From Schmidtea polychroa (lineage: Eukaryota), in contig CM097885.1 of the NCBI GenBank assembly GCA_044892525.1, positions 12,464,001-12,528,000 of the forward strand: a stretch of DNA of 64,000 nt. The letters run 5' to 3'. Position 1 is the first letter of the stretch. Each line of letters starts with the position of its first letter. Shown here in pieces: positions 11,270-42,500 of the stretch. Both the position numbers and the translations under genes were made by a program. The notes beneath the pieces are model-generated. The model had not been told where the DNA came from. It did not search any database and saw only the letters and a list, made by a program, of their open reading frames with translations.

Positions 11270-11850
11270 ATCTTTGTCTTAGTAAAGCTTTTTTAGCTTT
11301 CGAAGGTCTTCTTTCCTTGCGCTTGGTTCCAATATCGACATTTTTTGCCCCTGGCTGTGATTTGCAATACTTTAATCTGATCGTCATACCTATAAAATGT
11401 TTGCAAATGTAGTGCTTTAGAAATGCAGGATAGGTACAAGTACCCGTCTTCCATATTTCTCCATTATTTGGTATGGAGACACACCAAAAGCCGAATTGTG
11501 TAGATCGAAAGGCCTTGAAAGTATTAAATCCACCTTTTTCGAAGCATTTTATATCTTGATCTGAGATTTTAACTGTTTCGCCTGATTATACATAATATGT
11601 TGTAGTCTCTATATCCATATATGGTATTGAAATCATATCATTGTTTGACTTTGCCCGATTGTATCCATCAGTTCGAAATGAAAGTTGAATAGTTGTTTCT
11701 TCCTTGTAACATTTTGAACTTATATCTCTTGGATCGCGCTTTTTTGACCACTTTTTAATAATTTCAAAAAAACCACATTAAACCTTGAGAGAACTAAAAG
11801 TTTGCGTAGGGTATCTTCATCTTTGATAACACGGTTGGTCGCTTCGCTTG
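11270..11850 (-). mobile_element. MULE transposase C-terminal (SWIM) remnant
   Basis: WKTGTCTYPAFLKHYICKHFIGMTIRLK...IGTKRKERRPSKAKKALLRQ; homologous to the 9930-10160 fragment, opposite strand. Confidence 0.75.
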
Positions 11851-12129
11851 TTTTGAGCGTTTTATATTAGAAGCCGTGTTATCTTGGGTGTTGTCTATCT
11901 GCTATTCTATATCGCTTGAATAGTGTGCTACGTGTTGCAATTGAGACATTTAAAGCTTTGAATTTAAAATATTGTTAATTCCAAATTAATAATGCGCACA
12001 TGCTTATTTTAATATAATTAATGCTCGATTAAATATTGCTCTTTTATTAATTTAATAATTAATATCTTATTTAAATAAATACTGTTTTTTCATAGTTATT
12101 TCATAAAGTTACTGTAATATTTTATTAAT

Positions 12130-12348
12130 TTAATTATCAATTTCATAATTTAATAATCAATTTCATAATTTAATAATCAATTTCATAATTTAATAATCAA
12201 TTTCATAATTTAATAATCAATTTCATGATTTAATAATCAATTTCATAATTTAATAATCAATTTCATAATTTAATAATGAATTTCATAATTTTATAATCAA
12301 TTTCATAATTTAATAATCAATTTCATAATTTTAATAATCAATTCAATA
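12130..12348. repeat. 20-bp tandem repeat (AATCAATTTCATAATTTAAT)n
   Basis: About 10 units. Confidence 0.9.
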
Positions 12349-12644
12349 ATTTCTCTGTCAAAATATTGTAAATAACTAATTATATATTCGGCTGCCAGTG
12401 TGAATTTTGTGTTAAATTATTTTTTAATATTTTTAAAGAGTTAAATGAAAAATTCAACAAATAATTTATTGATTTTCCCCTCAATTTTAAGATAAGCAAA
12501 TCAATATTCTTCATTTTGAGTTCACATAATTGGTCAGTTGTTGTTATGGTTTAAAATTTTAAAATATTTTAAAAAAATTAATAATAATCAATAATAATTA
12601 TGGAGTTAGAAAGAAAATTTAATTAAATTGATTAATTAACTTAC

Positions 12645-14537: not shown

Positions 14538-15319
14538 AAATAAGTTTAATTTTACGTTAATTTAAATTCAATTCAGACTATATAAAAAGAATAAACAATT
14601 ATTTGTATTTTTATAACAAAGTTTTAATTAAATTTTAATTTGAAATCTTTATTAATGAAAAACTTATATGATTATATGATAAAACTATAAAATTTCTTTA
14701 ATTATTGAGGATAATATATTGAATATATTAATTTGTAAAGATATACGTCATTAGTCATAAATAAGTGAGTAATTTGTTCTTGAGATAAGAGCATAAAGAA
14801 TCATGTAATATTCTGAATTCATAATAATTTATGTTACTTAAAAGTGTATACATTAACATATTGAAATTAAAATATAACTTTTTAATGATATACCATATAT
14901 TTGAGCCTTTCAAACTAAATCTATTGGTGGGTTACAGGTGGTCGAATGATTAAGTGCTGCTACCAGCGTAACCCAACATGCAACCTTGTTTTTCCGCTTG
15001 GTACCCGTTGAGTGATCAACGTTGGTACTGTACCAAGGGTTGAGTACCCGCAAAAGGTGAGCGCATCAACGCGCTATAATTGTCGAGTACTCCACGGGTT
15101 CATGGACTACCGTTAGAAGGTTTGTGTCCGATTTCCTCAGGTCCCCTATTCGAAATTGTTTTCCAAACTCTCAACACCTCGATTTTCAGTCACTCAACGT
15201 TTGTAAACAACATACTTCATACATTAATTTAACTAAATTTGTATTTAGACATTAACAATAAACAACCAAAAAAAAAATTTCAATATATCTAGCATAAGTG
15301 ACTGTTCACATCGCGGAAA

Positions 15320-15766
15320 TTACACTGGTATAGATTTTTCTTGTCGCTCATACTCGGCTAACCTAGCCTTCTTTAACTTCTCCCGGATGTTCCGTCCTAA
15401 CCGCTTTCTTTTGGGTTTCTCTTTCGCGGCCGGAGGGTATATTGCTGCTAGTTCCACAGTCAACGGCCGGATTTGGCTTATGGCGGCCCCGTGAACTACT
15501 TGTTCATTTCGCTCGGTTTCTAACGCGCGGAGCTGGAGCTTCAGTGCCCGGATCTCCATCTGATCCTGCGCGGCTTGGGCCTGCAGTTGAAGGACCTGCG
15601 CCACCTTCTTTTTCATATCCTCGGGACTAAACCGGGTGCTTTCTAGTTCCCGGCACCGTCCCTTGAGCTTGTCTACTCGTATGCGGAGCTCCTCGGCCTG
15701 TTTTTGGGCTTCTTCCCTGTCCTTTCGCAAATTTTCAAGTAGTTTGAACACTAGATAAAAATTCAA
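15320..15766 (-). CDS. Orphan coiled-coil protein with basic tail, inside family B copy 1; true start uncertain (possible splice acceptor near 15751)
   Basis: Open for 148 codons in visibly GC-richer DNA; heptad-like E/K/R/Q/L helix and a KPKRKR basic motif. Confidence 0.55.
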   Translation of the reverse strand: MNFYLVFKLLENLRKDREEAQKQAEELRIRVDKLKGRCRELESTRFSPEDMKKKVAQVLQLQAQAAQDQMEIRALKLQLRALETERNEQVVHGAAISQIRPLTVELAAIYPPAAKEKPKRKRLGRNIREKLKKARLAEYERQEKSIPV

Positions 15767-15967
15767 TGATTCATTCTTGCAGCATAACGCTCATTCCATT
15801 ATATAATAAGATCAATATTATAAATAAACATAGTTTCAGATATTAAGCACGCAATTCCTAAGATAATTTATTGAAAGGAATAAAATAATTCGTCACTAAA
15901 ATTAAAGTTTAATTAAGTCATAACTGATGATAATTGCAAAAAAAAATTTGATGATGAGTCAGGTCGG

Positions 15968-16324
15968 TCACTTGCGAGGCCTTCCCCTCTTCCGCGGGGT
16001 TGTCTCGGCCTCTTCTAGGTCCTCTACGGTTTTCCCTTCATTGTTTGCCCGGATTTGCAAGTCGATTTTCCTCAATCGCATCTGGGCTGCTTCTACCTCG
16101 ATGGCCGCTCGGTCGCGGGCCTCTTGCAAAAAATCGTTTGTGGGCTCTGTTTTTACCCACGCTGGGGCGTCCGGTTCCGGCCCACTCCTGATTACTGGGC
16201 CCCAGTTGTCGAGGTCCAAGCCCCGGTTCCAATCATGGATACGGTACCATATGTACCGTGTCCGGAGTCGTGTAAGCATCTGTCGGTCGGCTTCTTCGTT
16301 ACTAACACTGTCAGAATAGGACAT
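15968..16324 (-). CDS. Orphan 118-aa protein ending in an AT-hook-like motif, inside family B copy 1
   Basis: Intact ATG-to-stop frame in GC-rich DNA; C-terminus PRKRGRPRK. Confidence 0.6.
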   Translation of the reverse strand: MSYSDSVSNEEADRQMLTRLRTRYIWYRIHDWNRGLDLDNWGPVIRSGPEPDAPAWVKTEPTNDFLQEARDRAAIEVEAAQMRLRKIDLQIRANNEGKTVEDLEEAETTPRKRGRPRK

Positions 16325-17409
16325 TTCTACAAAAGAGTAATCAAGCCACTTTATACTGATTGTAATACGGCGTTAAACACAGGATTTTGTTGTCCCTTTT
16401 TCCCTTTAAGAATTTAAAAATAAAAAGAAATATTTTATTTTAAGGCTAACATTTATAATCCTAGGAACAATAGAATGAAATTTCATATTTTGTCTATTAA
16501 TAACCAAAAAGAATTTATCAACAATCCTCTTGTTTTAATTAACTAATTTTCCCTAAATTTGTATTTATCACTAAGTGATCATTTAAATTATATTTTATGT
16601 ATTTTAATTTAAATATTATAGCGAATTTGAAATTTCAGGGTTTAAATCTTTTGCCACTAAATTCGGGTACGCTGAGGCGACAGGTATTAACAACGAGCTT
16701 AGCTTCTCGTCTGCTTGCCTTTCCTTCGGTTGTACTCGTCATGAGTGGTATAGTCCGCTTTGATTTGCTTGTAAGTAGTTTAATTTTTTAACCATAGCTT
16801 TTCGATTTTAGAGATATTTGGTGGGAATCTTTCACTCGGATGGAATGACCGGTTGTTCAAAGCCCTAATGGAATTTTATATGACTCTGTGTTGGTATCTT
16901 TAGTTTGCTTTGTATTTAGTGGGGTTAGAAGTTTTGTTGAATAATTTTAATTTGGCATGTTCTTTGGCTAATCGCTTTTGATTTTTGTAAAACAAATTTT
17001 TGTCAGTTATCGATAATTCATGCGACTGATTCCGTGGAGTTCCACGGTTGGTATCGACTGTCCCAATGTATTCCTAGTCCTCAATGAATTGGTTTAGGTT
17101 AATGGGGGTTTTACCTGACTTTTAATTTATGGGGCCGCTAAATTAACTAAGATATATACGTCACTGATGAGCCTGGGTTAAATTAACTTATTCGATACGT
17201 ATAGTTACCTACAGTTACACATGTCTATATATGCGCACCTACTCATGTTATTATTGAATTAATAGTCCTAGCATTTTCTCCGAGGGGGTTACTAAAAATA
17301 GATTTCTGGAATTATGGTCATTTTTTTTGGAGTAAAGGGGTAGGTTCTAAATTTATTCGTGGGGGAAATCCTAAATCGATAATTCAATCAAATTTTGATT
17401 TTTGGAAAT

Positions 17410-17557
17410 TAATAATGAAATAATAGTAATAACAATAATGGTGATAATCATAATGTTGATAAGAATAACACTAGGAAGAATGATCATAGCAATAATTATG
17501 ATAATAATAAAAATGATAATAATAACAAATAAATCATAATAATAATAATAATGATTC

Positions 17558-17622
<65 letters not shown>

Positions 17623-17835
17623 CTAATCATACTGGTACTAATAATAATAGTAACAATAATAATAGTAATAATAATAATAACAATACCAATAATAATAATA
17701 ATAATAATAGTAATAGTAGTAATAATAATAATAATACCATTCATAATACTGGGTAATGAGAATAATAGTAATAATGATGGTAATATCAGCAATAATAACA
17801 ATAATATTAGGGTTAATAATAATAATACTAGTAGT
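17410..17835. repeat. (AAT)n-rich microsatellite inside family B copy 1
   Basis: Imperfect AAT array; counterpart at about 30950-31060 in copy 2. Confidence 0.95.
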
Positions 17836-20800
17836 ATAATTTTATATGGTACAATTCGAAGTTTATATTTCCCATTTTAGAGGTTCCTATTCTATGATTT
17901 AGGAAGTTACTTTTTGTAATTTACAAATTTCTGTTTCTAATTTAAAATTTTCTATTTTCCAATTTATAAATTTATAACTTCTAATTATATATATTATAGT
18001 CTGTAATTTAATAATTTATGACTTTATATTTTATATTTTATAATTTTATATTTTATACTTTATAATTTTATACTTTACGATTTATAATTTTATATTTCGT
18101 AATTTATAATTTTATATTTTATACATTTGTATTTCATAATTTATACTTTTGTATTGTATAATTCATAAATCCATATTTTATAATTTACAAGTTTGTAATT
18201 TAGAATTTTTATAGATTTTGATTTAATGATTCACGATTTCCTATTCGACTTTACATAACTTTTAAGAATTACCTTTGCGTGATCAATATTATTTCCCTAA
18301 ATTTTCGGGTTATAAGTTATATTTTCCGAGGTCCCACATCTACATATAAAAATTGTATACTCAAAATATATAATTGCTAATCTGAATATTTCATTAAGGA
18401 TTTACCTCAATATAGTTATATTTAAGATCTTACAGATATTTCTGACGTTATAACTAATTATTTATATCTTTATGAATATTCTAAAGTGGGAATTCTTAAT
18501 TTTAATCCTTTGGATTTGGAGTACCTATATTTACATTAAATTAACCTATCTAGATTAAGTTCTACTTATACGTATGCCGAATAGCTTTCTCATTTCCATT
18601 ACTTCATCATAAACTCCTATTACAATATCTCGTTCGGCATATGTTTAAGTATAACTGAAATTACTATTATTGACCAACCAACTACATTAATGTGCTGTAG
18701 AATTGTGTGAGATTAGGTATGAGTTCTACTCAGATTAAGACCTTATTGTAGAGATATTTGACATTGATTTTTAATGTTGATTTTAAATTTGTATTGCGTA
18801 CAAGGTCGGGAAGAATATTGCTTCCATGGCCCCACTGTGACCACTTCCACAAACCTTAGTGTTGAGTTTTGAGTCAACCATTTACGGTCGACCTTACATA
18901 AATACAAAGAGTCAGGCGGAGGGTTTCCTCGACCTAACTCCATGGCAGGACCATGAAGTAGTTCGACCTCCGAACTGACCCGAACAAAAAGAGTGTTATA
19001 GATAATCATAATGCATGTGTGCATGAGAAATTGAATTTAAAATTATATGCAGGACCGATCAGAGACGTACTCGGACGCCGCTGATCCGTTGAGAATTACT
19101 AAACATAAAATCTTAAAAATATTTTTAATAGATAAAAGGTCGATATTAATATAATTACATAACATAAAATTACAACAAATCAAAAGGCTTACTAATGATT
19201 CTCAAAAAAAAATTTCAGCAAAATATTGGCATAAAGATTGATTTATGACCGAAACATGTCGGTATATATACCTATTTTGTACACGTGTATGTATTGATGC
19301 ATTAAAACAAACTCGAATTCTTTTTATTCCAGAATTTTCTATTTTACGATTTTGCTATTTTTAATGGCAATTTTTGTGCCATAATTTTTGTTTTTATTTT
19401 TATATTTTTATTTTTTAATTATTTTTCATTAATTTTACGTCCATGATGGATTTGGAACGGTTCCAGAACATTCTATTTTACTTTTAATTTAATTTTTATT
19501 CTAACTGATGTTTTATGAATTTCTCTCTAAGATTTATTATTTTTAATACTAATTTATTTATTTCCTCTAACTTTTATTGTTCTAGCTGGCTTTTGTGATG
19601 GTCATCGCCATTTTAATGGAATGTTCTGGGCTTTTCTGGAATTTTTTCGGTTTTTATCGTCTTTTAAGTTGTTCGAGTCTGTTTTATGCATATCGGTGTT
19701 TATTTGGTTGTTTTTGAGTTCTATTTTTGCATCACTTCTTGCTTTTGTATAATTTTATTTAATTTCTGTGTTTTAGGTTTTTGTTACTTTCTCCTTTAGT
19801 TAATATTGTTTATTTGATGTAATTTTAATATTTAACTAAACTTCTTGCTTTTGCATGTTGTGTACCTGCACCTTTCAGTCACAATTCAAGTTTGGGTCTA
19901 GAAGTCAGTTCTAGCCCAACACTATCACAAAGTAAAATTGGTCAGATGAATCTTTTGTTGAATCCAAAAACAAAGTCGAGAACTTCAGATGCCTTCTAAG
20001 TTCTGAATACATTAGGTCCAAAGTGACGATAAAATACATTTTTCAGTTCTAAACTAATATTAAGATCAATCATGTATTAATGACTAAACACAGAAATAGT
20101 GACTCGTACTAAAAAAAAAGGTCCGTTCCAAATACTCTTTTATTAACTTTTATTATTTACCAATAATTAATTACAGTAACTTTCGGTTTCTTGGGTTCAG
20201 TTAGGTTAAAATTGTTAATGGTAGCCTAGTTTCTTTAATTACCACAAAAACGCATAACTCAATTTACCCAATTAATACCCACCACAAAGTGTCGTTGACA
20301 CTGCATCGACTGGTTGAGAATTAAAAAAAGGTGAGCGCTGTTGTAATGACTGCTTAGTACAATACTTTCTTCGATTCAAACTGAAAGATAGAACATCTTT
20401 CCATGCCCTTTTCCACAAGGTGTATTACACCGTGATTGCAGCTCCTACCTTAGATTTTTACTACTTTAAACTACTAGACCACAAACTATCTCTACCTTAC
20501 TTCCGAAGAAAATGAAATACGAATTTTAAATTTCTAGTCTCCCTGATTAAACTCGTTATTTTAAGACACCTAAAATGATTATAACAATAAATTGATTAAC
20601 TGTCCTGGAAAAAATTGTTAAAGGACTACAAATAAATAAATAAATTAATTAATTATAAAAAATGTATTAAATAAATTAGAAGTATACTCTCTAAGCTCAA
20701 CAGCAAAATATACAATATTGAAAATTTGACAAAGTATTATTTAAGAGCTTGAATAATGATCTCATATCTATATGGATAAATATTCAAACCTTAAAGTTTA

Positions 20801-22303: not shown

Positions 22304-23203
22304 TTATCGGATCCTAAAACGCTTGCCACAAATTGTTATAATATTTGGATTTTTATTTCGTTTTGTTGGTTTTTGACATTTCGATGAATTTTCACATAGT
22401 TTGCACAATTTTTTGGGAGGACCATTTACACTATCTAGGGGCTTTTTGTAGAATTTTGCCCATTGATTGATTAATTTTATTACAAGTTTTATTTTCATAA
22501 TTCTCATTTGGATGCGCTTGCAAAGATGATAAACTACTTCGTAAATATGGCTCTCTCTGAGATCGACGGATGAAATGTTATTAAATTCTAGAAGAGCTTG
22601 CAACAAAATGGTCCTTTTATCTATGGCAGGTAACTTATTGTCTTTCAATGGTTTTAACCATTCAGCAATTGCTGTTAGAAATTTGCATTCAATTAATATA
22701 TCTTTTATTTTCTTGTCTTTAGGATTCATAAGGATATTTTCCACTTGTTCCAGAATGCCCAATTGTCTCTCGCATGATTCAGTTTTGGAATATAATTTTT
22801 CGTCGGTTTCGCGGGCTAATTGCATTTTGTTTATTAATTAAAAAATAGTTTGTTCGATTGTGTTTTTTCACTCATTCTCTTTTGATGGGCATGAATTCGT
22901 TTCCTTGATTTGTTTCCTATTTGTTTTCTCGCATCTTCAAAGGTGGTTAAAGCATCTGTGTTATAGGAAATTGTTTCGTGAGGACTTCCATTATGGAAAT
23001 TTGCTTTTTGGTTTTTTATTTCGACTGGGTTTTATTATATTTACTTTGATATTATTTTCATTTTGTTTTATTGAAGATTCTTTATTCATTGTTTTAATTG
23101 AGGATTTATTTTCACTTTCCGAAGGGTTTTCATCATCAGAATCGCCAAATAATTCTTTGATTAGTTCTTTAGAATCTTTTTTAATATTTGAATTGTTTTT
23201 CAT
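22304..23203 (-). pseudogene. IWS1: IWS1/Spn1-like (TFIIS N-terminal domain) intronless copy with frameshifts and a stop
   Basis: ELFGDSDDE, then LINKMQLARETD and FLTAIAEWLKPLKDNKLPAIDKRTILLQAL...KLINQWAK. The expected HPNENYENK lies in a shifted frame, and an in-frame TAA precedes the domain. Confidence 0.75.
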
Positions 23204-25764: not shown

Positions 25765-26718
25765 TTATTGAGATCTCCAAATCTCTGGATTTTCTATATT
25801 TAGTTTTTGAAGACTTTTACATTTCTCAATAAATTCCGGACTTTCCAATGCCAGCACGAACATCTTATTCTGTAATGACCGGGCCTTATTGAAGTATCCT
25901 TTGATCAATTTAGAAAAGTTTTGATTGAATTTATAAGTGTCATATTTGACATGGATTGAAACAATCATATGCAACGTTTGAAAGAGCGACAACAAGGTTG
26001 AACATGTTACGGAAATTGTTGCCATTACATACCTTTTTTCATAGCAAGAATGGATTTCGATAATGAGATTCGATTCTATCAAACTTGCATATGGCAAGTA
26101 GGCATCGCTCTTTAGAAATTTGTAGAAAGTATAATTTCCCGGTATAAACTGACAGAACTTTGCAATACCGGCCCAGAAATTCAGAAGCGAAACCACTAAA
26201 CTACAAGATGTAATAATCTGCAACGTCAAGAATACATAATAGTGCTTGTATATAAACATTAATATTTCGAACCTCCAACGGTATTGTATGTCTACAATGT
26301 GCTTCGACACGAATGCTCCAAGGCCATTCAAATGATCCCTCCTGGTAAAGAATAGTTGGTTTGAGATAACTCCACCAAATCCGATGAGGATTAGAATACA
26401 AATTGACCGGGTAATCATCAACTGTGCTAAAGTTTGAAAAACCACTCTGTTGATTTTACAAAATGATTGAGGATTCTGTATCACTTTCATTGACAAATCT
26501 TTATGTTTCATAAAAAATGGACAATATGACTCGAATTTAATTTCGATTTCGTTCAAAAACACTACGTGAATAGTGCTAAATACAGAAGTCAAGATTGAAT
26601 AAATCAAAGTCGCAACTAATAGTTTATTCCATGAACATAAGACTCGACGTCTTTCTTGAATAAGATCGACTTTGATTGGAAATATATTGGGAAATAAACT
26701 ATCCAACAAGCGATTCAT
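25765..26718 (-). CDS. Intronless four-transmembrane protein with innexin/pannexin/LRRC8-like topology
   Basis: About 317 open codons from the ATG at 26718; four hydrophobic segments; two Cys in each putative extracellular loop (ESYC...SFC and KFC...HSC). Confidence 0.6.
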   Translation of the reverse strand: MNRLLDSLFPNIFPIKVDLIQERRRVLCSWNKLLVATLIYSILTSVFSTIHVVFLNEIEIKFESYCPFFMKHKDLSMKVIQNPQSFCKINRVVFQTLAQLMITRSICILILIGFGGVISNQLFFTRRDHLNGLGAFVSKHIVDIQYRWRFEILMFIYKHYYVFLTLQIITSCSLVVSLLNFWAGIAKFCQFIPGNYTFYKFLKSDAYLPYASLIESNLIIEIHSCYEKRYVMATISVTCSTLLSLFQTLHMIVSIHVKYDTYKFNQNFSKLIKGYFNKARSLQNKMFVLALESPEFIEKCKSLQKLNIENPEIWRSQ

Positions 26719-27206
26719 TAAAGTAAATAAAATCAATTAAATAAATAAACTTTTAATATATATTACTAATTTTTATAATTATAAACACAATATACCAAAG
26801 CGCAATAAATAATGGCCTTAATGACAATAAATAACAGCCTCAATAATATTAAAAACTAACCAGTAATAAATGTGTTTGTGTGTCATTAGCAAAAGTGACA
26901 ATATATAAAGTGGCAATAGACAATGCTTTTCATCGCATTAACTATATCATTTAACTTATCAGTTGTGCTGATTAACAAGTTAGACTTTTTTTAAATAATT
27001 ACATATTTTAATGTAATAATAAATTTTAATAGTCATTTTTATAAGGATTCTACGTAACTGCATGAACAAATACTGTAAAGGATACCATAAAAGGTTATCA
27101 AATACTTTAACTTAATCTGATGATTCATTTTCATATTTCACTTTTATATAGTTTTAAATATATAGACTAAATAAATAAACTAAATGACCAACTTAATTTT
27201 ACAATT

Positions 27207-27720
27207 TGTTGAGGATATCTGAATAATAAATGATATGAAAAATAAATAAAATTACCTCGGAGAAAATCTTCATGACAAACGGAACGATCTATGGAAACGC
27301 GGAGAAGAAGGCGGATGTAAAACGAAGCAAGAGATGAGAACGATAAATCACACAAAAGAAAGCAAACAAGAAGTTAAAACAAAGGCCATCATTAATTAAC
27401 AAGTACAAAAGAGGAAAAATGAATTTCAAATTCTAAAATCAAAACAGGAGAAAATTTATATCTTGACAGTTTGTCAAAGATATCAAAATTTCAAAAAAAG
27501 TTGGCCTAACAAAAAAAGAGAAAAAAGCAAGGCATATTTTGACATCTGTCAGAGATAGGGTAGGGACAGTGGCAAATGCGGGAAGGAGAAAAATGGAAAA
27601 ACAAAATTATCTCAAGTACCGCAAATTTAACAAACTATTAAAGGGAAAGATACAGAGAGTTAAAAATTTAAATAAAAGAGTTCAGAAGTTAGAGTCGAGG
27701 AAAAAATTTGAATTTGGATT
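27207..27720 (-). mobile_element. Family A element, truncated inverted copy
   Basis: Begins TGTTGAGGATA (reverse complement of the family A 3' end); homologous to about 3800-4308. Confidence 0.75.
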
Positions 27721-29799
27721 AAACTGTGGGGTTATGGATTGGTGATAATATTTGTAAAGTTAAAATTCTTACCCTGACTCCAAGCGTGTCATTGACTGAC
27801 CCACAAATAACACTTGACAACAGAAATTTTTATTAATTATCACAAATAATTTTCACTTTACACTGACAATCAATTCAACACTCAATACAACAATTCAACA
27901 ATTCGATACAATGCTTATTACAACACTCAGTGAGGAATAGCACTTGTGTACAACACCGGATTGAAAGATCACTAATTACTGATTGGTTTTGTTGGGCTAG
28001 AACTGATTTCTAGACCCAAAGTTTGGAATGGGACGAAATGTGTCAGTACACAACACGCATACCCAGCATTAAGTTTACTTAAATAAAAATATATAAAACA
28101 CCAAGTAAACAATGATAATAGAGAGATAATATACCCAAAAATAAAACATCTGAATTAAAAATAAAATAAAACACGAGCAAGAAGTATTACACGAAAACTT
28201 ACTCAAATATAACCGAAAGACATAAAACAACAAAAAACAAATTCGAATAAAGGCGATTAGTAAAAATTAAAAAAGAAAATTAAAGAAAATCTTCATAAAA
28301 TCTTACGTAAAGAAAATTACATCGATATTTTGAATAAAAATCCAGAACAATTCATAAAAATGGCGAAATCCATCATGACGGCCAAACGACCCAATAAAAT
28401 TTATAAAAAATAAATATTTTAGTTTAAAAAATAAATATTTTAGAAAAGAAATCATAAAAAACAATTTAAAAATAAGAAATAGATTGAATTTAGCATGGAC
28501 TGTTTTGGAAATGCTGAAATCCATCATGGAGGCAAATTTAATAAAAAATAATTCGAAAATAAAATTTCAAAAATAAAAACAAAAATTCTTACTGAAAAAT
28601 CGCCATCAAAATCGATAAAAATTATAAATCGAATGTTCGAGAATTAAAATAATCTGAATTTGTTTTACTGCATCAATGCACGCATGTATACTTACACGTC
28701 AAACAGAGGCTATATAAACTAACACATTTCGTCACTTTTTAAGCAAGGAAAAAAATGAAAATGAATATTTTTACTCTTATGCCAAATTTTTGATTTTGAT
28801 TTTTCTGAGATTGTAAGTAAGGACGATTTCATTGTGAATTATAAATTATTATTATTGAAACCTTGTTTTCATTATTTCTATTTAATTATAGAGGTGTAGA
28901 TTTGAATGAGATCGTCGGTTATCAATGATTTTGAAGCGAGATCCCAGCCAAACCTGCACCTATGCACTTTATCATTTATGAATGCACAGTTCATAATGAT
29001 TTCGGGTCATCGACCCTACATGCACTAAAATCATAATCTTAACCAGAGGTCGCCACGAACTATTGGTGTTTAACCATGAGTAGGGCGTATAAATCCTTCT
29101 TGGTAGTTGGCATAGTCACAGGGACTATGCGGACGAAATAATTATGGGAAACTAATTGTGGATACATATTGCAATAGGGCCTATCGTACCGTACTCAGTG
29201 TAGTCGGGAAAGTAGGTAAATTTTAATTAAATCGACCTTTTCGTTAATTTACATACCTAAATTAACACTTAAATTATACTATTTTGCACACAACATTAGG
29301 AACTGATAAACGGGGAATATCCCCTGACTCAAATTTCACACAATACAACATGCTAGTGTAGCTGGTTATTTCTAAACGAATCCCTCTTAAACTATAAATT
29401 CAATGTGAACCTAAGAAACTAATTAACTCAAAATAACAGGGAGATCCCTGCGCAAATTTTTTTAAGGCAATTAAAGACTTAAAAATTTTGAACCATTCCC
29501 TGTAAGAATACTGCAACCTAAAGTTCATGCGATGAGTAGGACCTAAGATGATATAATCTCAATCGCACTGGTAAGCGAACTAATATCTATAGATGCCCAC
29601 AAAATAACCTATTTTGATGCAAACTAAATTTCTCTATCGTAATGGTCTTGGTATGCGCAAATTCCCGTAGACATATTGATAAAGTCTCTTTATCTATAAA
29701 CTACTAATATTATATCTATAACTTATAAGTTCGGGCAACATCTTCACATTATTCTACACTAAATTAAATAGACTCTAAACTAACTATAAAAATACAAAT

Positions 29800-30615
29800 C
29801 GTAAACCCATAAAAATATAAATTATCCTCTCAATTTCATAAAAATATGAATTATACTTATAGATTTAATTTCTTCAAAATATAAATTATGATTAGTTATA
29901 AAAGTATAAATTATAAATTTAATTTCCTAAGAATATAAATTACAAATTTATATTGACTGAAAAATTATAAATTATAACTCTAAGTTGATTGTAAAAGTAT
30001 AAATTATAATCCTAATTTCATAAAAATATAAATTATAATTAGTTATAGAAGTATAAATTATAAATTTAATTTCCTAAAAATATAAATTACAAATTTACAT
30101 TGACTATAAATTATAAATTATAACTCTAAGTTGATTGTAAAAGTATAAATTATAATCTTAATTTCTTCAAAATATAAATCATGATCTTAAAAGTATAAAT
30201 CATAAAATTATATTAGTCTTAGAACATAAACTATAAATTTAACTTAACCTCATAAAAATATAAATTATAAACTTAAAAGTATAAATTATAAAGTTATATT
30301 AGTTTTAAAAATATAAATTATAAACTTAACTTCATCAAAATATAAATTATAAAATTATATTAGCTTTAAAATATAAACCATAAATTTAACTTCATAAAAA
30401 TATAAATTATAAACTTAACAATATAAATTATAAAATTATATTAACTTTAGAAATATAAACTATAAATTGAACTTCACCAAATATAAATTATAAACTTAAA
30501 AGTATAAATTATAAAATTATATCAGTTCTAAAATATAAACTATAAATTTAACTTCATAAAAATATAAATTATAAAATTATATTAGCTTTAAAATATAAAC
30601 TATAAATTTAACTTA
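29800..30615. repeat. AT-rich satellite (TATAAATTATAA core) inside family B copy 2
   Basis: Many degenerate units; a shorter reverse-complement counterpart lies at about 17940-18230. Confidence 0.85.
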
Positions 30616-31734
30616 ACTTAGATTGCCTTTAACATCATAGTTGAAAATTTTTCATCAAAGACCCCCCATAAACCATATAGTCATCAACTACCACCTAAAT
30701 ATACTAAATTAGCTTATCTTAATATATATTTAACTTATATTATATTTTAAAATATAAATTGAAAATTTTCATAAATGACCCCCTTCAAATTATGTAGCCA
30801 TTAACTATTCCTTAGGTATACTGAATTGTATCATCTTCGTATAGAGTCAAATTATATTTCAAACCAAAAAAAAAAAAATAATAATTCCATAAATTTTCGT
30901 AAATGATCCCCCCATATGTAGTAATCTTATAAAAATATAAATTTACATTTATTATTATTATTATTGTTATTATTATTATTATTATTATTATTAGCATTGT
31001 TACCAGTAACATTATCACTCTTACTATTATTATTACTATTATCATTATTATTATTATATTATTAAAATAATTATCTTTATTTCATAAAAATAAAATTATA
31101 AAACAAATTATTGATTTTGGGATTCCCCTATCTCTAAATTTAGTTTCAATGGCCCTATCTTCCAATAAAATTACGGAAAATCACTAAAATCTATTTTTAG
31201 TAACACCCCCCCCCTGAAAACGACATCAATATTATTAATTTAAATTATATCCATATATGTATATATGTGTGGGTGTATATGTATGTGTATATATAAGTGG
31301 ATATGTGTATGTACATACCGATTTATAAAACAACCTTATAACAATACGATAACCTTCCCCCTCAAGACCCCTGTTATGTGATGGAACGAGGATAGAGTAG
31401 TTTACTGAAGTAATTTAGTAGAATCATTTATTAATTTATTAAAATTATTGGATTTATTTTTAACTAGATCAAAAGAAGAAAAACAAAGACTAAGTTTATT
31501 GATTTCGATCATCAAATTTATTCACATAATTGTTTCTTTGAATCATATTCATACCAAAAAGTCCTTCGAGCTCAGTTGATGGACCATCCCGATGAAATAC
31601 ATTTCCTGGGGTTGGAAAATGGAAAACTTATTAAAATATCTTTCAGAATTTCTTTTAGATTTCCACAATTAAATAATTCCAAATTATTTCTCACAAATAT
31701 ATTCGATCAGAAAGAATTTTAATATTTTATTTAA

Positions 31735-32403
31735 TTACAACATCCTGAATTTATTTCTTTGCTTGGCTGCTTTAAGATCATAAATGGGCATTTTTCATTT
31801 ATTAATCGGATAAAATCAGTTTTTCTGTACAACCTTTACATTCTTCACCCCAGCTTTCTAATATTTTTTGAGATCTTTAACGCGAGCTTTGTTTAGATTA
31901 ATACCAGTAAGATCAATAGGTTTGTCTGAAAAATAGTTGAATTAATATTTAAAATCTTAACTGAACATACCATATTTTAATTCACAAATTTGTGAATCAA
32001 TTGCTTTTAGTTTTTCAGACTTTTTCAGCGGGCATAACCCAACTCAAAGGCTGAGACAAATGTTTTACAATATATGCAGTAGATGTTACCAATCCTCCAA
32101 TATAATAACACTAAAAATAAATTACAATTTTATAGTAATCAGTTATAATACCTTACCAGACTTTATTCTTTTCCTTTACTTGTTTTGCTCATCTTTTTGA
32201 ATTTATTTTCAATATTTTCGATATTTGTACTTTCATCTCCATCTAGACTATCTTTCAGGCGTCTCACAAACTTAACACAAACTGAACAATTTTTAAATAT
32301 AATAATAATAAGTGCCAAATACCTTCGCAATTATTTTCATTAACTGTAGCTGACATTACATAGTAAACAATGATTAGAAAAGAAAAACTGATAAAATTTT
32401 CAT
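31735..32403 (-). pseudogene. MANF: MANF/ARMET copy, 4 exons (32403-32323, 32281-32157, 32110-31971, 31925-31735), with frameshifts and a stop
   Basis: Signal peptide, then [47 protein letters not shown] and WGEECKGCTE; introns of 41, 46 and 45 nt. Confidence 0.9.
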
Positions 32404-35400
32404 TGCAAAATATTACTAATATAAAAAAAATGGTTTGTTAAAAAAAAATAATTAGTTAAAACAAGTTTAAAATACTTCAAACTGACGTATAAGTTTTGTT
32501 TAAAATGTAAGTAACGAGTATTGTAAAATTAATTTAATATTATTATAAATTTTGAATTAAAATTTTCTTAAAATTCTAGAAAAAAATCTATTATTAATAG
32601 AAAACAAATTTTTAAAAATAAATAAGGTTTGAGTCAATTTGAATTTTCTAGAAGTATCTCTTAAAATTATATAGGGAATTGTTTTGTAACAGTTATTGAT
32701 GTATTTTGAATTTATTTAACTTGAATTAAAAATATAATATTAACAAAAATGTATTGTGAGATTTTGATTGTTGATCTAACCATCTCTCTATAACTACCCG
32801 GGCTCAACAAAGGGGAGTGTCATTGTAGGTCAACTAGGACAGTCATAGTCACCGCGAAATACGCTTAGTCAAATAATACGCGGTCATAAACAATCAGGGT
32901 TCTTGTAAAGTTATTATATTTTGTTGTTGTGGTTGGTGAAATTTCTGACCCTTATTTGTATGTTCACTAATATATAAGTTGTTTGTTTTTTGATTATTTT
33001 CTAATTAAATTCATTATTCCCAAAAATTTCTTAAGGTATGTTTAATAAACTTTGGTTATGTTTCACTTAATTTATACTCAAACATGTTAGATGGGGTATT
33101 GTATGAACAGGTTTTGATAGATTAATGTATGATTCCTGATGACTTATGATCGTTTGAGGATAGAAAGTTTGTATAAGCATAGTTGAGGAAGTGATTATAA
33201 TAAGGGACCTGCGTAAATCGGACATACATCTTCTAACGATAGTCCGTGAACCCATTAGAGTGCTCGACAATTACAGTGCAAGTAGTGCGCTCACTTTTTG
33301 CGAGTACTCACCCTCTTGATACAGTACCAACGTTGATCGCTCAACGGGTATCAAGCGGTAAACAATGTTGTATCTTGGGTTACGCTGGTAACAGCACTAA
33401 AGAGCAAAATATTTGATCATCGGTAACCCACCAGTTTATTGACTGGAACTTTGAGTTGTTTGTTTTCTTTGACCTTCTTCGACAACTTTATTTAAATATT
33501 CAAATAACTTTTTTTGTTTATTTCTCAACTAATTCTTTTTGAAAATTCCCCAACAAATTGTTTTCCAATAAATACTCGTTTCAATGGTTTCTATAAAATT
33601 TCTCACACAATTTCTCCGTTAATTTTCTCCGTTAGTTTATCTTCTTTTTCCGTAGACTCATGACTCATTTTCCCTTTCGTTCTCTAATAAATTTCCGTCT
33701 AATATTTGTCTGATTTTGTGTCGCTTTCTCGGTTAACGGTTTCTCTTTATATAGCTTGTTTTATTTGTGGCACTCGAGATAATCAAATGTTTTCTATTTT
33801 TCTTTCTCCTGCATTTTTCATTTTATCTCTGACTGATATAGAGATATTTTTCCCTTTTCCTTTTTTGTTAAGCCGCCTTCTCTCAGAAATTCCGCTATCT
33901 TTGACAAGCTGTCAAGAGATACGGCTTTTTCCAATGTTTTTTTTCTAGAATTTGAAATTCCTTTTCTCCTTTGTACTACGAGAGCTATTCTTCACGTAGT
34001 GACGTAATAAGCTCTGGATAATTTTCTATACTAGAATTAATTGGCTGTAATTGCAACTAGTACAATCTATTGTGATTAGATAAAGGTTTATTTTGATTGA
34101 GAATTGTTAATTTGTGAATTGATAAAACACACTTGGAGTCAGAGAGGTGTGTCATTTTTTGATTTTTTCCATATTTTATTTTTTCTTTTTTGTTTACTCA
34201 TTTCTTCTACTCGCTTCACTTCCCATGATTGTGGAACAATACAACTTTTATTTTATTCATTTCATCACCCCAATCATTTTATTTAATTTACCAATATTTA
34301 TTCAATATTTATTATATAGATATCCTCAACAAAATTATTAAAACAAGAAACTTTTGTACTGGATTTATTTAAATACTAACTAGTGCAAATCGATATTTCA
34401 AATAATTTTTTGAAACCTCAACATTATATTTGTTCATTTTCCCGTATTTGATTGATGGTTTTTACATGTTTTAATGTCAAATCGACTTTAGATTATGTCT
34501 GAATGTTGTGTTCACAAATTTTTTTCTTTCATCAATTTAGACATCACAATACATCTGAATTATGTCCCGCGATATTTTGGCATTCCCATGTTTAAATCAT
34601 TACACTTTGAAGTTGAATAACTCTTACTTGAGTGACTGCACTTGGTTTTCATATATCTAAATTTAATCAAAAGGCTCAAATTTATTTAAGTTATCAACAT
34701 ACAGTAAAACCGAAAGATCAGATTCACTTAGTAATGGGGGATTTATATATTGCTATTATTAACTTAATGACCTTAACTATTTGTTGTTAATACCTTCGTT
34801 TCGTGACCTATCGTCATGACGGATTAACAAAAGGCGTCCTTAATGTCAAACGTAAAGGATTGATTAAAAAGTAAGCATAAAAAGTAAGTATTCCGAATGT
34901 TGAGGTCTCAAAATGTGAGTAATTACAACAATCATGTTAACAAATTATTTCATCATTTTTAATATCACTTCTTAAGAATCTTTAAAAACTCTTGAACACA
35001 GTAACAAGGCCATTTTCTTCATGACTGTTTTTAAATTAAGGGTTTAAAAAAATTTTAAATGGTGAGATTTATTTTATGATTTTAAATCTTTGCTGTGTTA
35101 TGAATTTATACACATCACTTTTTCGTTTATATTCTAAGCATGAAAATATTTAACAAATAAAATTTTTTTTAGAAATAACTTTAATTAACAAAATCTTTGA
35201 AAATATTATTATCTAAGATAATTTGGATGAGAATAAATTTGTATTTCGCACGTCGTTTTAATAATATATAGAAAGCGTGTAATATTTTAAAAAATTGTCA
35301 TAAAAATAATTTTCATTTTATCAAGTTTAACTCTATTTAAATAAACATTTTAAACTTATCATTTAATTGATTATAATATTTTGATTTATTAATTATGGGT

Positions 35401-35404
35401 ATAG

Positions 35405-35896
35405 GTAAATATTTGTCTGTTGATCTTATTTGTGGTCTCCACAAGCTATTTTGTTATCAGTGATATTAAAAATTTAAAGGATGCTGACATCGAAAGAATT
35501 TCTAAACAGTGGGAAGAAAGTGATGAAGACTTTGATAAAGAAACAGAACGCGAAACTTTCCCTGAAATCAATTTAAATAAAATCAATCTTGATAATCCTG
35601 ATGAATATCTTCGCCAGTCTCAAATGAAAAAGCAAACTATGTTATTTGTTGATTTGCAGTTTGTATCTAATGAACGTGATAGAGATGAAATCACGTCTTT
35701 GTGGTATTATTTGCTTCATGGAAATCATATTGAGGTTCAGGTCTATCCCGCTTCTACTACTCGAGTAATAATTATGGTATTAAATGGGTCACAGCTGTTT
35801 GAAGTAAAACGTTTCCTTCTGACTCAAAAGAATTGCAAAAGTGTTACTATTGATGGGAAAGAATTTTTACCTAATCAAAATAAAAATGAATTATAG
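35405..35896 (+). CDS. MESD: MESD/Boca-like LRP chaperone; start unresolved (nearest ATG, at 35395, is out of frame)
   Basis: Hydrophobic leader, DADIERISKQWEE, KKQTMLFVDL, ITSLW...NHIEVQVY, VKRFLLTQKNCKSVTIDGKEF, and a C-terminal KNEL ER-retention-like signal. Confidence 0.85.
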   Translation, partial: VNICLLILFVVSTSYFVISDIKNLKDADIERISKQWEESDEDFDKETERETFPEINLNKINLDNPDEYLRQSQMKKQTMLFVDLQFVSNERDRDEITSLWYYLLHGNHIEVQVYPASTTRVIIMVLNGSQLFEVKRFLLTQKNCKSVTIDGKEFLPNQNKNEL

Positions 35897-36708: not shown

Positions 36709-37100
36709 ATTTTGTCCTAGCTTGGTCCCAGGGCCGTGCCAAGGTGTGTTGGCGCCGGGGGCCAGCCAAAATTTGCCGCCCCTCCCCTTAATAAGTAAAA
36801 AAAATCTGAAGCAAATATTTTTCATAATAAAACAAATAAATTATTATTTTTCATATATTTGCAAAAAACTTAAAAAAAACAACAACATTTGGAACCATAA
36901 CAATAATATATATGTAATAAACAAAAAGCAAAAAAACATTTTACCAACACTAAATTTTACTTAAAAAAAAACTTTTCTCACTTTTTTGACTGCAAATTCA
37001 TTAGTTAGATCAGTAGTGTCTAAATCTGCTGCTATTTCTTTTTCAAATGCACATTTGGCGCCCACTGCCCCTAAGACAATCTTTAAATCTTTGTGCCCCT
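36709..37100 (-). mobile_element. hAT remnant (GC-rich terminus plus dimerization-domain tail)
   Basis: CAGGGCCGTGCC terminus; minus strand reads FEKEIAADLDTTDLTNEFAVKKVRK. Confidence 0.6.
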
Positions 37101-37117
37101 AAAAAAAACAGAAGCAA

Positions 37118-38060
37118 TAAGTATCACACGAAAACTTACTCAAATATAACCGAAAGACATAAAACCACAAAAACAAATTCGAATAAAGGCGATTAGTAAA
37201 AATTAAAAAGAAAATTAAAGAAAATCTCCATAAAATCTTACGTAAAGAAAATTATATCAAAATGTTGAATAAAATTCCAGAACAATTCATAAAAATGGCG
37301 AAATCCATCATTGCCGCCAAACGACCCAATAAAATTTATAAAAAATAAATATTCCAATTTTAAATATAAAAATTTAAGAAAAAGATTCACAAAAAAACAA
37401 TTTAAAAATAAGAACTAGATTAAATTTAGCATGGAATGTTCTGGGAATGCCGAAATCCATCATGGAAACAAATTTAATAAAAAATAATTCAAAAATAAAA
37501 TTTCAAAAATCAAATCAAAAATTAATACGTCAAAATCGCCATCAAAATTATTAAAAATTATAAATCGAATGTTCTAGAATTAAAATAATTCGAATTTGTT
37601 TTACTGCATCAATACATGCATACATACTTGCACACCAAACATAGGCTATATAAACTAATACATTTCGTCACTTTCCAATGTTTACTCTTATGCCAAAATT
37701 TTGATTTTGATTTTTCTGAGATTGTAAGTAAGGACGATTTCATTGTGAATTATAAATTAATATTATTTAAACTTTGTTTTCATTTTTCTATTTAACTATA
37801 GAGGTGTAGGTTTGAGTGAGATCGTCGGTTATTATCGATTTTGGAGCGAGATCCCAGTCAACCCTGCACCTATGCTTTTCTTTTGTTGTGGGGTTCACAC
37901 CCTCAACGATTATGGGTCTATGACCCAACCTGCACTAAAATGAATTTTTACTACCAGAGGTCGCCACGAACAAATAGTGTTTAACCAAAGAGTAGAGCGC
38001 ATAAATCCATCTTGGTAGTCGGCATAGTCATAGGGCTATGCGGACGAATTAACTATGGAA
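37118..38060 (+). mobile_element. Family B element, partial copy 3
   Basis: Closely similar to about 28180-29150. Confidence 0.85.
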
Positions 38061-38899
38061 ATTAACGGGTCTATGATCCCCACATAACATTAGCGCTTAT
38101 CGTAGTGAGCATAGTGCTTACATCACACTAAGACTCAATAAACGGAGGAAAGCTCCAAACTTAAAATAATCACAGTTCTACAATTAGTTGACATTTTTAT
38201 ATGATATATATGGTCAATGATTTATTTTCTGAAAATATAAAGGTACAAAACAGGGGTTATAGTTACTGATTCCAATTTAAACAAAAAAGGTCAATTACTA
38301 AGGCAGAATGCTGCCCAAATTTTTGAAAGTCATTAAAAACAACCGAATATATGATAGGTTTAGAAATAAATTATCAAATCAATTCTTAACTCTAGGAATT
38401 GAATTATGCCAAAAATGAAAAAATTAAGATGTATAAATTGATAAAATAATGGAAACCTTTCTATAGAAAAACTTAGTTAATTATTTTCTGATTCATAGTC
38501 TTCAAGCTTTTTACCAAATACAATGGAAAAGAAATCAGTGGTGAAATTTGAAAATAAAGTTCTTATAATTAATTCAGTAGTTAATTCATTCTAGATGCCA
38601 GATTAGATGTCACTGTTGTTGGTCATTGTTATTTGATGGAAGGACACGAAGTCAGAGCTAATTGTAATCCTAATAGTCTTGCCAGAATTTTCAAAACTTA
38701 AATCGGGAAAGTACAAAACATTTTTTTATATTTAATATATTAATTTATTATGCTTATAAAAATAAACTAAATTTAATAGGAACATAAAAATTCAAATTCA
38801 TCTCATTAACTTTATATAAAATTCATTTAAGTTAATATCACATGGAATGACTAAAATAATAAAATAAGAGAATAGCGATTATTGAATACTAAGTGCATG

Positions 38900-39594: not shown

Positions 39595-42500
39595 ATGATT
39601 CCAAAAATTGCTTTGATTAGCCTCTTAAGTGCTATTTCGATTTTGCTATACTTCAATTCACTGGATTGTGGATTTGTATTTGATGATGTCACGGCTATTA
39701 AAGACAACAAAGATCTTCGACCAGAAACTCCATTTATTACATTATTTTTAAACGATTTTTGGGGCACGCCGATTAGCCAAGTTATTTATATGATTAATAA
39801 ATAGTAATTATTTGTACCTAAAGGAAAGAAGTCATAAATCTTACAGACCGTTAACTGTTCTAACATTTCGATGGAATTATTTTTTAGGAGAATTGAATCC
39901 AGCTGGTTATCACGCAATAAATGTAATCCTACATGCCATTGTGGTTATATTATTTTTCCAGTATGGTTTGAATGAATTTGATTTAAATTTACAATTGTAT
40001 TGATTATTTTTAAATTAAAATTTAAATAATAATATTGGAATTTAATATTAATTATATATTTTAGGCTCTGTACGATTTATTTCGACATAATTCATTCGTT
40101 TCTAAGTGCAATTTTATTCGCTGTCCATCCAATCCATACGGAAGCAGTAAGTGAATCTTGGCTTAAGATAAATAAATTTTGTTTTACATTTTTGTGTTTA
40201 CAAATTGTTTTAATTTATTATTAGAACCAGAATTTTCAGAAACAGCGGCTTAAAATATATATGAAATAAATATTTATTAAATCCATCTAATTATAATAAT
40301 GTTTATTTTCGTAAGGATATTCTTGACTCTCGCCATTATTAGTTTATGCCTTGAAAATTTTAAGGAAATAATTATGAGATTGCGGGGAAACGTTTTCATT
40401 TTATTTCGTAATTTCATAGAATTATTTTGACTAATTTATGCATCTTAATGTCTTAATTTGAATTTTTGATAAATATTTAACTACTTATAGTTTGTAAGTA
40501 TTAAAAGTAGCTCAAAGCAAATTATTGCAAATATAAATTTATAATGATTTTTGAATTTCTATTGAATGGTTGATATTATAATATAACTTGAATTTAGATC
40601 AATTTTGTAAAAGTAACATTAAATGAAAACTGGTCGACCGTAATCAGCATTAAGTGCTCCACCCAAGCGAATGAAATTAAAAAAAAATATTTTAAATATA
40701 AACTTTTATATTTTTACACTTAAGAATTCACACAAAACTACATTATTTGCTAAACCTGGTTTTCGCGTCCAAATTTAATTTAATTTTTTATATTTAATTG
40801 ACATTTATTTTTTTTAAATATTTAAAAATCAATTATTTGAATAATCATGGCTAGGAGACCAAGAAATCCCCTAGCATTGTTCTTGTTAATCTTGTTCTAA
40901 AGGCTAAAGTTATTAAGCAGCAGGTATGGCTATTGTCATAATTAGCTGTTGAATTGAAAGACCCCTTCGCAGTATTACAGTGTTGATCATCTAGGAGTTT
41001 GATTCGCTACACAATGGTGTTGAGGATACCTAAATGAAAAATAACATAATAAATAAATAAATTACCTGGAGGAAGATCGTCATGACAAACGGGACGATCT
41101 ATGGGAACTCAGAAAAGAAAACGGAAGTAAAAAGAAATTAAAAATGAGAAAGATAAATCAAATAAAAGGAAACAAACAATAAATTAAAACAAAGGTCATT
41201 GTTAATTAAGAAGTACAAATGAAGGTGGAATTTCAAATTCCAGAAAAACAAAATAAGGGAAAAAGTCGTATCTTGACAACTTGTCAAAGATAACGAAATT
41301 GTCGGGAGAAGGCGGCTTAACAAAAAAGGAAAATGGAAAACAGAATCTGTCGCCGGTGCCACAAATAAAATAACTATATAAAGGAAAACTCGTGGACACA
41401 AAATCATAACAAAAATTGGAAAAGTGGGAACAAAAATTGAGACAATTTGTAAGACAATTTGAGAGATAAAATTATTGGAGAAAAATTAGACAACGTCGGA
41501 CGAAACATTGTGAGAGAAACGATTGTGAAGAGAATTGTGAAGAATAATTGTTGAAGATTTGAATAAAAGAATTAGTTGGAAAATTAAACGAAAAGAAGTT
41601 ATTTGATTATTTGAATAAACTTGTGAAGAAGGTCAAAGAAAACAACCAGTTCAAAGTCCCAGTTGATAAACCAATCAGTAATTTGTGATCTTTTAATCTG
41701 GTGTTATACGCAAGTGCTATTCCTCACCGAGTGTAGTAATACGCATTGTATAGTCACCAAGCAGAGTGTTGAATTGATTGTCAGTGTAAAGAGAAAGTTA
41801 TTTGTGATTATCAATAAAGATTTCTGTTGTCAAGTGTTATTTGTGAATCATATAAAGACACGCTTGGAGTCAGAGTAACATTTAAATTTATCACCAACTC
41901 AATAACCCAACAATGGAATGTAATGTAGTAGAAAGTCTGTACGTGATGGATCGTTTTCCACACGTAACCATCTGACCATCCAACAAATTATTTTGATGGT
42001 ATACTGCTGGTCACATGACATGCCTAAAGATCAAGTCAAACATTACGCCGACACAGGAAATCATGCCATAGTCATCGATTGGTGCAACTTCATGTGGGAG
42101 GAATGTGAAAACTGAATTGAGAGAAATGATGGAGAGATTGGAGGCTTTGACGCAAATAGTCAATTTATCGTCGTTGAAATTAATGAAACAAACGGCCACT
42201 GGGTGTTTGGTAGTGTTGAGCCAGAGAGTGGCAAGTGCTTTCTCGTCGAAGTCCCACCAACAGAACTTTGTTGATCCGACAGATGACCAAGTCCACACTC
42301 AGAGTGTAAAAAATATGTGAATGCAAGCCAAACGCAAACTGAAACAATAGTTTAGAACCAACCGCGCTCTGTTCCCTCCATACCTACATGAATTTATATA
42401 CAGGAATAAGTTTCGTTAACAGGATGCATTTCCTAAATTCATTATTGCAATCGCTGAGAATTATGTTTAGTAACATTTATTTCATGACATCATCCTCTCT

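Follow-up and report, generated by a model that had tools for sequence, protein, structure and literature searches.

A stretch of 64,000 nucleotides of the Schmidtea polychroa genome (assembly GCA_044892525.1, contig CM097885.1, forward-strand positions 12,464,001 to 12,528,000), here called the window, carries a disabled, intron-bearing copy of the gene encoding the stress protein MANF inside the second copy of a mobile element family that we call family B (B2). All coordinates below are those of the window, whose base composition is AT-rich (GC mostly 0.22-0.35) and whose introns are short; repeat copies and element boundaries within it come from self-BLAST. The features under discussion are collected in the table. 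The original prediction placed four exons and three introns of 41-46 nt within B2, antisense to the strand on which the element begins with TGTTGGG, and this arrangement is confirmed by profile matches and by GT-AG splice joints.

The identity of the gene is supported by profile searches. Stop-free pieces of the minus strand match ARMET_N at profile positions 5-42 (E 1e-4), 46-76 (E 2e-8) and 75-93 (E 1e-3), and then ARMET_C at positions 2-14 (E 0.02) and 13-29 (E 2e-8), in the order found in MANF/CDNF. Five of the six pieces of the MANF region thus match ARMET profiles, two of the five above the curated cut-off; the sixth, the signal-peptide piece, gave no ARMET profile match. Aligned to PDB, the exon-3 piece retrieved MANF/CDNF chains (E 0.15-0.83), and among the matches listed all seven belong to this family. 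A protein search for a parent gene with the exon-2 piece returned none among 16 candidates at E up to 10. A match of that piece to a 1,888-amino-acid protein (E 6.5e-4) had no aligned stretch and was taken as chance. A DNA pattern from exon 4 had no match in metagenome contigs. The TGACGT motif upstream of the gene is presumably of the cAMP response element/unfolded protein response element (CRE/UPRE) kind. Downstream of the gene, the segment with two polyadenylation-type AATAAA signals may be either the captured 3′ untranslated region of the parent or a terminator of the element.

Table. Features of the MANF-bearing element and of related repeats in the window (LTR, long terminal repeat; TSD, target site duplication; B1 and B2, family B copies 1 and 2; X5 and X7, sequencing runs described in the text)
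Feature	Coordinates	Strand	Evidence
B2, 5,444 bp, TG...CA ends, likely solo LTR	27990..33433	plus	self-BLAST, end comparison
Left TSD GTTT, 4 bp	27986..27989	plus	B2 flank
Right TSD GTTT, 4 bp	33434..33437	plus	B2 flank; X5 empty-site contigs
A-rich 5′ block common to B2 and B1 (67%)	27990..28691	plus	self-BLAST
Tandem AT-rich repeats and ATT microsatellite, at the matching place in B1 too	29780..31095	plus	self-BLAST
GC-rich terminal cap (81% to B1; very high read depth; plus-strand hairpins; likely R-U5)	33205..33433	plus	self-BLAST, depth, folding
B1, 4,997 bp, TSD ATAG	14925..19921	minus	self-BLAST
Partial family B copy 3	37101..38065	plus	self-BLAST
Family A copy split by B2 (27725-27989 and 33438-34331)	27725..34331	plus	self-BLAST
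MANF copy, four exons	32403-31735	minus	profile matches, splice joints
MANF exon 1 (ATG at 32403; putative signal peptide; frameshift)	32323..32403	minus	splice joint in X7 contigs
MANF intron 1, 41 nt, GT-AG	32282..32322	minus	X7 contigs skip intron
MANF exon 2 (ARMET_N 5-42; in-frame TAA 32165-32163)	32157..32281	minus	profile search
MANF intron 2, 46 nt, GT-AG	32111..32156	minus	X7 contigs skip intron
MANF exon 3 (ARMET_N 46-93; 2-nt loss ~32015)	31971..32110	minus	profile and PDB alignment
MANF intron 3, 45 nt, GT-AG	31926..31970	minus	X7 contigs skip intron
MANF exon 4 (ARMET_C; 1-nt losses ~31863, ~31819, ~31793; 32-38 nt missing at 31750)	31735..31925	minus	profile, contigs
Upstream region, putative captured promoter	32404..32990	minus	TGACGT motif at 32483
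MANF-specific cargo (3′ flank, gene, ~590 bp upstream)	31620..32990	minus	X5 depth flat, ~450-590
Segment with AATAAA signals (31522, 31500), common to more abundant sibling elements	31491..31617	minus	contigs

The window was compared with contigs from four of 20 listed public sequencing runs, designated X1, X5, X7 and X12. All are assembled contigs, whose consensus loses rare variants and which carry neither strand nor transcript-end information. X1, X5 and X12 belong to three separate studies. None of the listed runs is recorded as RNA; X7 was taken by guess to be RNA, and the three GT-AG introns skipped in its contigs support the guess. Runs with a small share, metagenomes and others, were not used apart from X12, whose MANF contig has a depth of 3.64, under that of its other contigs, may be carry-over and serves only for the shared lesion at 32015.

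The MANF reading frame is not intact. It is interrupted by five frameshifts (one in exon 1, somewhere within 32394-32377, the others near 32015, 31863, 31819 and 31793), by one in-frame TAA and by a gap of 32-38 nt. The loss near 32015 removes 2 nt and lies outside any A/T run, and at the TAA there is no net frameshift, ARMET_N position 42 being followed by position 46 with three codons between. The sites judged against contigs were the exon-2 TAA, 32015, 31863, 31819 and 31750. One X1 contig (32016-32376) equals the window with one substitution and no gaps, and spans the TAA unchanged. The 2-nt loss at 32015 is common to contigs of X1, X5 and X12, the X1 support having 30 letters on one side, just under the bridging rule, and the 1-nt loss at 31863 is common to X1 and X5. 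The loss at 31819 is present in the X5 consensus and absent from that of X1. At 31750 the window lacks 32 letters found in X1 and 38 found in X5 and X7, and this gap occurs in no run compared; the missing stretch falls where the C-terminal retention signal of the family is expected. The X5 contig over 31750-32550 is 14 letters longer than the window.

Since independent contigs carry them, the TAA and the lesions at 32015 and 31863 are supported as real decay rather than assembly error. Other lesions are private to the window copy or are assembly errors, because the 31819 loss is not in the X1 consensus and the 31750 gap is in no run. The earlier description of small deletions and a TAA in exon 2, held to be genuine decay, therefore stands for three lesions; the 31819 deletion is not shared by X1, and the gap at 31750 had been overlooked. 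The supporting argument, that intact neighbouring frames (TMTC3 and NDUFA10) speak against assembly error, carries little weight, since multi-copy DNA is prone to failures of polishing and the X1 consensus is without two of the lesions. Reads that corrected the lesions would speak against decay, and most of the testable lesions stay uncorrected in the contigs.

The host element starts with TGTTGGG and ends with CCCACCA. It was inserted as a unit, as indicated by its exact TSD and by empty sites without the B2 insert, seen in two uninterrupted family-A copies and in 27 X5 contigs. An exact 4-bp TSD with no fifth matching base is present in all four intact-ended elements tested (B1, B2 and the family-A copies A1 and A4). 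The terminal inverted match of B covers 8 of 10 bases, the next 30 bases showing scattered matches only. No direct repeat was found between the two ends of B2, and B1 has one 28-bp internal match. The possibility that the MANF segment is an independent insertion with terminal inverted repeats (TIRs) or a TSD of its own, raised with the original prediction, found no backing above chance: no direct and one inverted 10-mer were seen against 1.3 each expected. Family A, into which B2 is inserted, is a TG...CA repeat of ~0.9-1 kb with a 4-bp TSD; the window holds four copies (3334-4308, 27207-27648, 27725-34331 and 41018-41912), one of them partial, with TSDs ATTT, CCAT and AAAC/AAAT. Read in reverse, family A has a layout as in B and a similar end (TAACCCAACA vs TAACCCACCA).

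Comparison of the B copies points to a variable middle. B1 and B2 resemble each other over ~700 bp at the start (67%) and ~235 bp at the end (81%) and have the ATT microsatellite and the tandem repeats in common, and their middles differ: B2 31210-33200 has no homology with the middle of B1 (seven segments, the best score being reached by 5 of 100 shuffles). Positions 28164 to 29155 of B2 are 85% like the partial third copy, which is directly preceded by a short GC-rich element (36731-37100) with a CAGGGCCG-type start. In place of MANF, the middle of B1 has two GC-rich (50-55%) minus-strand open reading frames (ORFs), at 15968-16324 and 15320-15790. One ends in RKRGRPRK, which we take to be AT-hook-like, and the other is a coiled coil with a basic tail. 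They gave weak Pfam matches only, none among 662 candidates, and in the Atlas no usable match or generic coiled-coil look-alikes; they may be LTR-borne accessory genes. A sequence pattern from the cap had no match in metagenome and viral contigs, and an Rfam scan of 14000-42000 (E up to 0.05) yielded three matches, all to microRNA models, and no hammerhead or other matching family in B. The anatomy of the family B element suggests a solo LTR, probably left by an LTR retrotransposon of Gypsy type; the 4-bp TSD is the ground for the Gypsy assignment.

Contig depth suggests that the MANF-bearing form is not confined to this site. Depth over MANF is 2117-2270 in X1 and 492 in X5. The low-depth reference class spans 18.5-57.9 in X1 (seven values), 15.9-56.4 in X5 (eight) and 10.6-15.6 in X12 (three); it was chosen by eye from 32 of about 4,250 pieces and from joint rows, with high-depth rows excluded, together with an X1 joint of depth 222.6 and an X12 contig of depth 73.2. 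The ratio of MANF to this class is 37-114 in X1 (12-36 via its AT-rich upstream contig) and 9-31 in X5, values obtained without a single-copy-gene control from summed contig depth, which is not copy number. In X1, depth falls three-fold in AT-rich parts. A structural variant was rejected as the cause of this unevenness, depth tracking GC (about 600-1450 at 17% GC, about 2100-2270 at 30% GC). The ratio of cap to MANF depth is free of calibration and amounts to 84 in X1, 1175 in X5 and 40,838 in X12; relative to the low-depth class, the cap is similar across runs (8,200-13,200). MANF in X1 is also deeper than family A (920), though family A has four copies within the window alone. The family-A flank past the TSD shows no amplification in X1 (depth 365 at 33568-33648, and below), so extra MANF copies are likely at other sites. 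We conclude that the MANF-bearing element is likely multi-copy, its estimated number being near ten in one sample and between tens and roughly a hundred in another. Over 31554-33085 the X5 contigs follow one another in window order with one 29-base gap, and sibling elements, ~4-9 times more abundant, share 31380-31617 and diverge at ~31617. Past 31617-31619 the siblings carry other sequence, which is seen in X5 and also in three contigs of X7 and may be a second expressed cargo with the same terminator.

Two spliced MANF variants occur in X7, in whose contigs all three introns are skipped. The major one (depth ~1120-1230) is free of the 31863 and 32015 losses and has substitutions found in no DNA run; it probably represents the parent or an intact allele. 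The minor one (depth ~400-420) has four substitutions in common with the X5 DNA contig and the base at 31863 lost, its contig breaking exactly at the 31863 run, and element-borne copies are its likely source; contig depth is no measure of expression. Transcription and splicing of this lesion-bearing variant make it likely that the captured promoter is still active. One X7 contig (contig 24) extends without a break from exon 4 through the two minus-strand AATAAA signals to 31491 and then continues for 226 unlike letters; the 3′ untranslated region of the parent may have been captured as far as 31491.

The strand of the element's RNA is indicated by folding of the cap. On the TGTTGGG-first strand the two copies give z -3.01 (0 of 200 shuffles) and z -2.60 (2 of 200), against z -0.23 (85 of 200) and z -0.63 (45 of 200) on the opposite strand. 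A consensus fold of 54 pairs, on the TGTTGGG-first strand only, has two compensatory changes, three one-sided changes via G-U and no broken pair. The conserved end of B, 220 nt long, thus forms its fold on the strand opposite MANF alone. This favours carriage of the gene in antisense through an RNA intermediate, a route proposed when the gene was first noticed. The cap would correspond to R-U5 (the repeat and unique 5′ regions of an LTR) and the remainder of B to a long U3 (unique 3′ region), with MANF antisense to the element RNA. All parts of an LTR pass through RNA; retained introns in a multi-copy LTR therefore need either antisense orientation or suppressed splicing.

We hold it moderately probable that a disabled, intron-bearing MANF gene lies antisense in a Gypsy-type solo LTR and has likely spread with it, its introns staying unspliced from the element RNA. 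In the proposed history, a genomic piece of 1.4-1.5 kb, comprising upstream region, gene and 3′ flank, would have entered the variable middle (U3) of the LTR in a single copying event. Because the introns and ~590 bp of upstream sequence came along, this first capture probably took place at the level of DNA or unspliced RNA, and DNA repair or a template switch onto unspliced RNA could have served as route. MANF would have been disabled before the spread, given that X1, X5 and X12 share lesions. The LTR sub-family would then have retrotransposed to the copy numbers suggested by depth, and recombination between two LTRs would have left the solo copy at the window site. The captured promoter would point away from the element's own start site; from its position, the upstream region faces the cap head-to-head and may act as a promoter both ways. 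The coding part of MANF is likely a passenger, and any selection would act on the promoter.

Several points weigh against this reading, including the limits of contig depth and of its reference class given above. The cap fold was derived from, and then judged on, the same two sequences; at the GC-rich end of family A neither strand gives a fold signal (z -1.1 to +1.0), and the 5′ start of B2 folds on both strands (z -3.1 and -2.1). The status of B as an LTR is indirect, because no full-length element, primer-binding site, polypurine tract, gag or pol was seen, nor any coding region of such kind in B. The ORFs of B1 lie on the strand opposite to the MANF cargo of B2. The DNA runs yielded no parent-like contig, although rare variants are lost from contigs. 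Finally, X7 contig 24 reaches the segment shared with sibling elements, and the major variant might itself be element-borne.

These points leave room for other explanations, first that B is a non-autonomous DNA element, Ginger1-like or of Pack type, which captured MANF at the DNA level and moved by cut and paste, so that intron retention needs no special cause. Such an element would agree with the lack of a retroviral coding region, with the TG...CA ends and 4-bp TSD that Ginger1 DNA transposons also have according to the available part of PMC6839031, where LTR elements are given mostly 5-bp TSDs, and with the multicopy Pack-TIRs carrying genomic pieces described from animals in the accessible text of PMC8277862. 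We nonetheless judge it unlikely, as the strand-specific cap fold with G-U-tolerant changes points to an RNA stage. The TIRs of Ginger1 are tens to hundreds of bases long, and the inverted ends of B match at 8 of 10 bases only.

Another unlikely alternative accepts B as an LTR and attributes the passage of MANF from one LTR to others to gene conversion, or to a segmental or tandem duplication, without reverse transcription. The exchangeable middle of B, seen between B1 and B2 and in the siblings that diverge at 31617, would suit such a process, and one MANF-bearing site alone has been seen directly; an unamplified flank past the TSD in X1 and the exact TSD of B2's own speak against it. We give a similarly low probability to the view that the gene within the LTR is the only type of MANF locus in the species, the RNA variants being alleles or sub-families and the working copy element-borne. 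It would explain why X1 and X5 hold no separate parent contig and why X7 contig 24 links exon 4 to the sibling-shared segment. That contig, however, departs at 31491 for its 226 unlike letters, as expected of a parent locus, the consensus of three DNA runs is frameshifted while a lesion-free variant dominates the RNA run, and a single-copy parent could hide under 10-100 near-identical copies where rare variants are dropped. Very improbable, and already largely refuted, is a single-copy gene with consensus errors for lesions and a misassembled position inside B. In its favour, A/T runs account for several breaks of 1 nt, the X1 consensus has neither the loss at 31819 nor the gap at 31750, and among the rows listed all small indels against high-depth X1 contigs inside the cargo are window losses. 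Against it, three lesions stand in independent contigs, the exact TSD and the empty sites mark B as a single inserted unit, and X5 contigs tile the region in window order.

Other features of the window were noted in passing. A MESD frame at 35395-35896 (plus strand) is 87% identical to P0001 over 163 amino acids without gaps and ends in KNEL; the ATG closest to it (35395) lies one base off its frame, and there is an in-frame TAG ahead of the ORF, so that a first exon outside the frame seen, a frameshift or a pseudogene must be assumed. A match to the Rfam mir-753 precursor (20738-20798, minus strand; E 5e-8, 48.4 bits) is under the gathering score of 62; the family being planarian, the match suggests a planarian-like host. 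A mir-297 match at 31257-31329 was rejected as TA/TG low complexity far under its gathering score. A decayed actin fragment is found at 10314-10652 (minus strand; Pfam PF00022, E 5e-7). Between 2713 and 5397 (plus strand), ORFs interrupted by family A resemble, by eye, integrase and minor-capsid pieces of Polinton/Maverick elements, with no Pfam match. The same lack of a Pfam match applies to an ORF of short cysteine-spaced repeats (59267-59635, minus strand), a frame resembling IWS1/TFIIS-N by eye (22304-22837, minus strand) and a hydrophobic 323-amino-acid frame (25765-26736, minus strand). A GC-rich tandem array of 14-15-nt TATTGTCC-type units occupies 9139-9890.

Intron loss is the usual test for RNA-based gene copies. 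In LTR-mediated retroposition, as set out in the available part of PMC5131818, an LTR retrotransposon likewise carries host sequence and several insertions from one capture share private changes, but the cargoes are intronless mRNA copies that replace element sequence and mostly retain parental-sense transcription. B2 differs in that all three introns are kept, intron loss being absent, and in that gene and upstream region lie antisense in one likely LTR. A planarian host, tandem repeats and host-like domains are shared with the giant gypsy-like LTR retrotransposons Burro and GYPSM1 (PMC6431247). Burro has thousands of copies, an internal region of up to 25 kb and a total length of over 30 kb, implying multi-kb LTRs. 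Its host-like domains are placed in polyprotein fusions or accessory ORFs, unlike the cargo of B2, and the accessible text mentions no intron-containing gene inside an LTR. Burro elements are obvious candidate carriers, their likeness to B being by description only.

A close parallel to intron survival is a Penelope element of Adineta vaga, where, in the portion of PMC3846280 at hand, an intron-containing host gene lies between retroelement ends with a TSD and an antisense template is proposed for intron survival; it differs from B2 in its pLTRs, its 8-bp TSD and its being a single event. The same portion credits intron-keeping dispersal to Penelope elements alone. The plant families Grande, RIRE2 and Retand also have an antisense transcription unit in most copies of an LTR family, though one located between pol and the 3′ LTR, with conserved ORFs and no host parent, whereas the B2 cargo is a recognisable disabled host gene; transduced host genes are there said to be usually in sense (available part of PMC7264820). 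Pack-TIRs (Ssk-FB4) and Pack-MULEs resemble B2 as multicopy polymorphic elements with a nearly whole host gene copied at the DNA level, and differ in requiring DNA-transposon TIRs, of which B has none beyond 10 bp (accessible text of PMC8277862). Our literature search, outside which most subscription papers lay, found no intron-containing host gene inside an LTR and no MANF in a planarian element. Beyond the original prediction, the analysis adds that the carrier of MANF is likely a solo LTR and that the MANF-bearing form is likely multi-copy and transcribed.

A broader proposal may be put forward more speculatively, and we consider it possible but doubtful: the LTRs of family B would offer an exchangeable antisense cargo bay in their U3, in which whole host transcription units, with promoter, introns and terminator, are reverse-transcribed unspliced, so that genes could be duplicated by way of RNA with their introns preserved. 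A stress-gene promoter and a spliced MANF pseudogene would then exist at 10-100 copies, differing between samples; they may drive the element under endoplasmic reticulum stress or modulate the genuine gene, and the working MANF may even be among the LTR-borne copies.

The MANF locus offers a testable case of large between-sample differences, within one species, in the copy number of a stress-gene promoter and a pseudogene, and pseudogene transcripts would confound work on MANF expression or RNA interference in this animal. If the favoured reading is true, MANF would be among the rare genes copied by way of RNA with introns kept; LTR elements too would disperse intron-containing genes, and some intron-containing duplicates would have been misread as DNA duplications.
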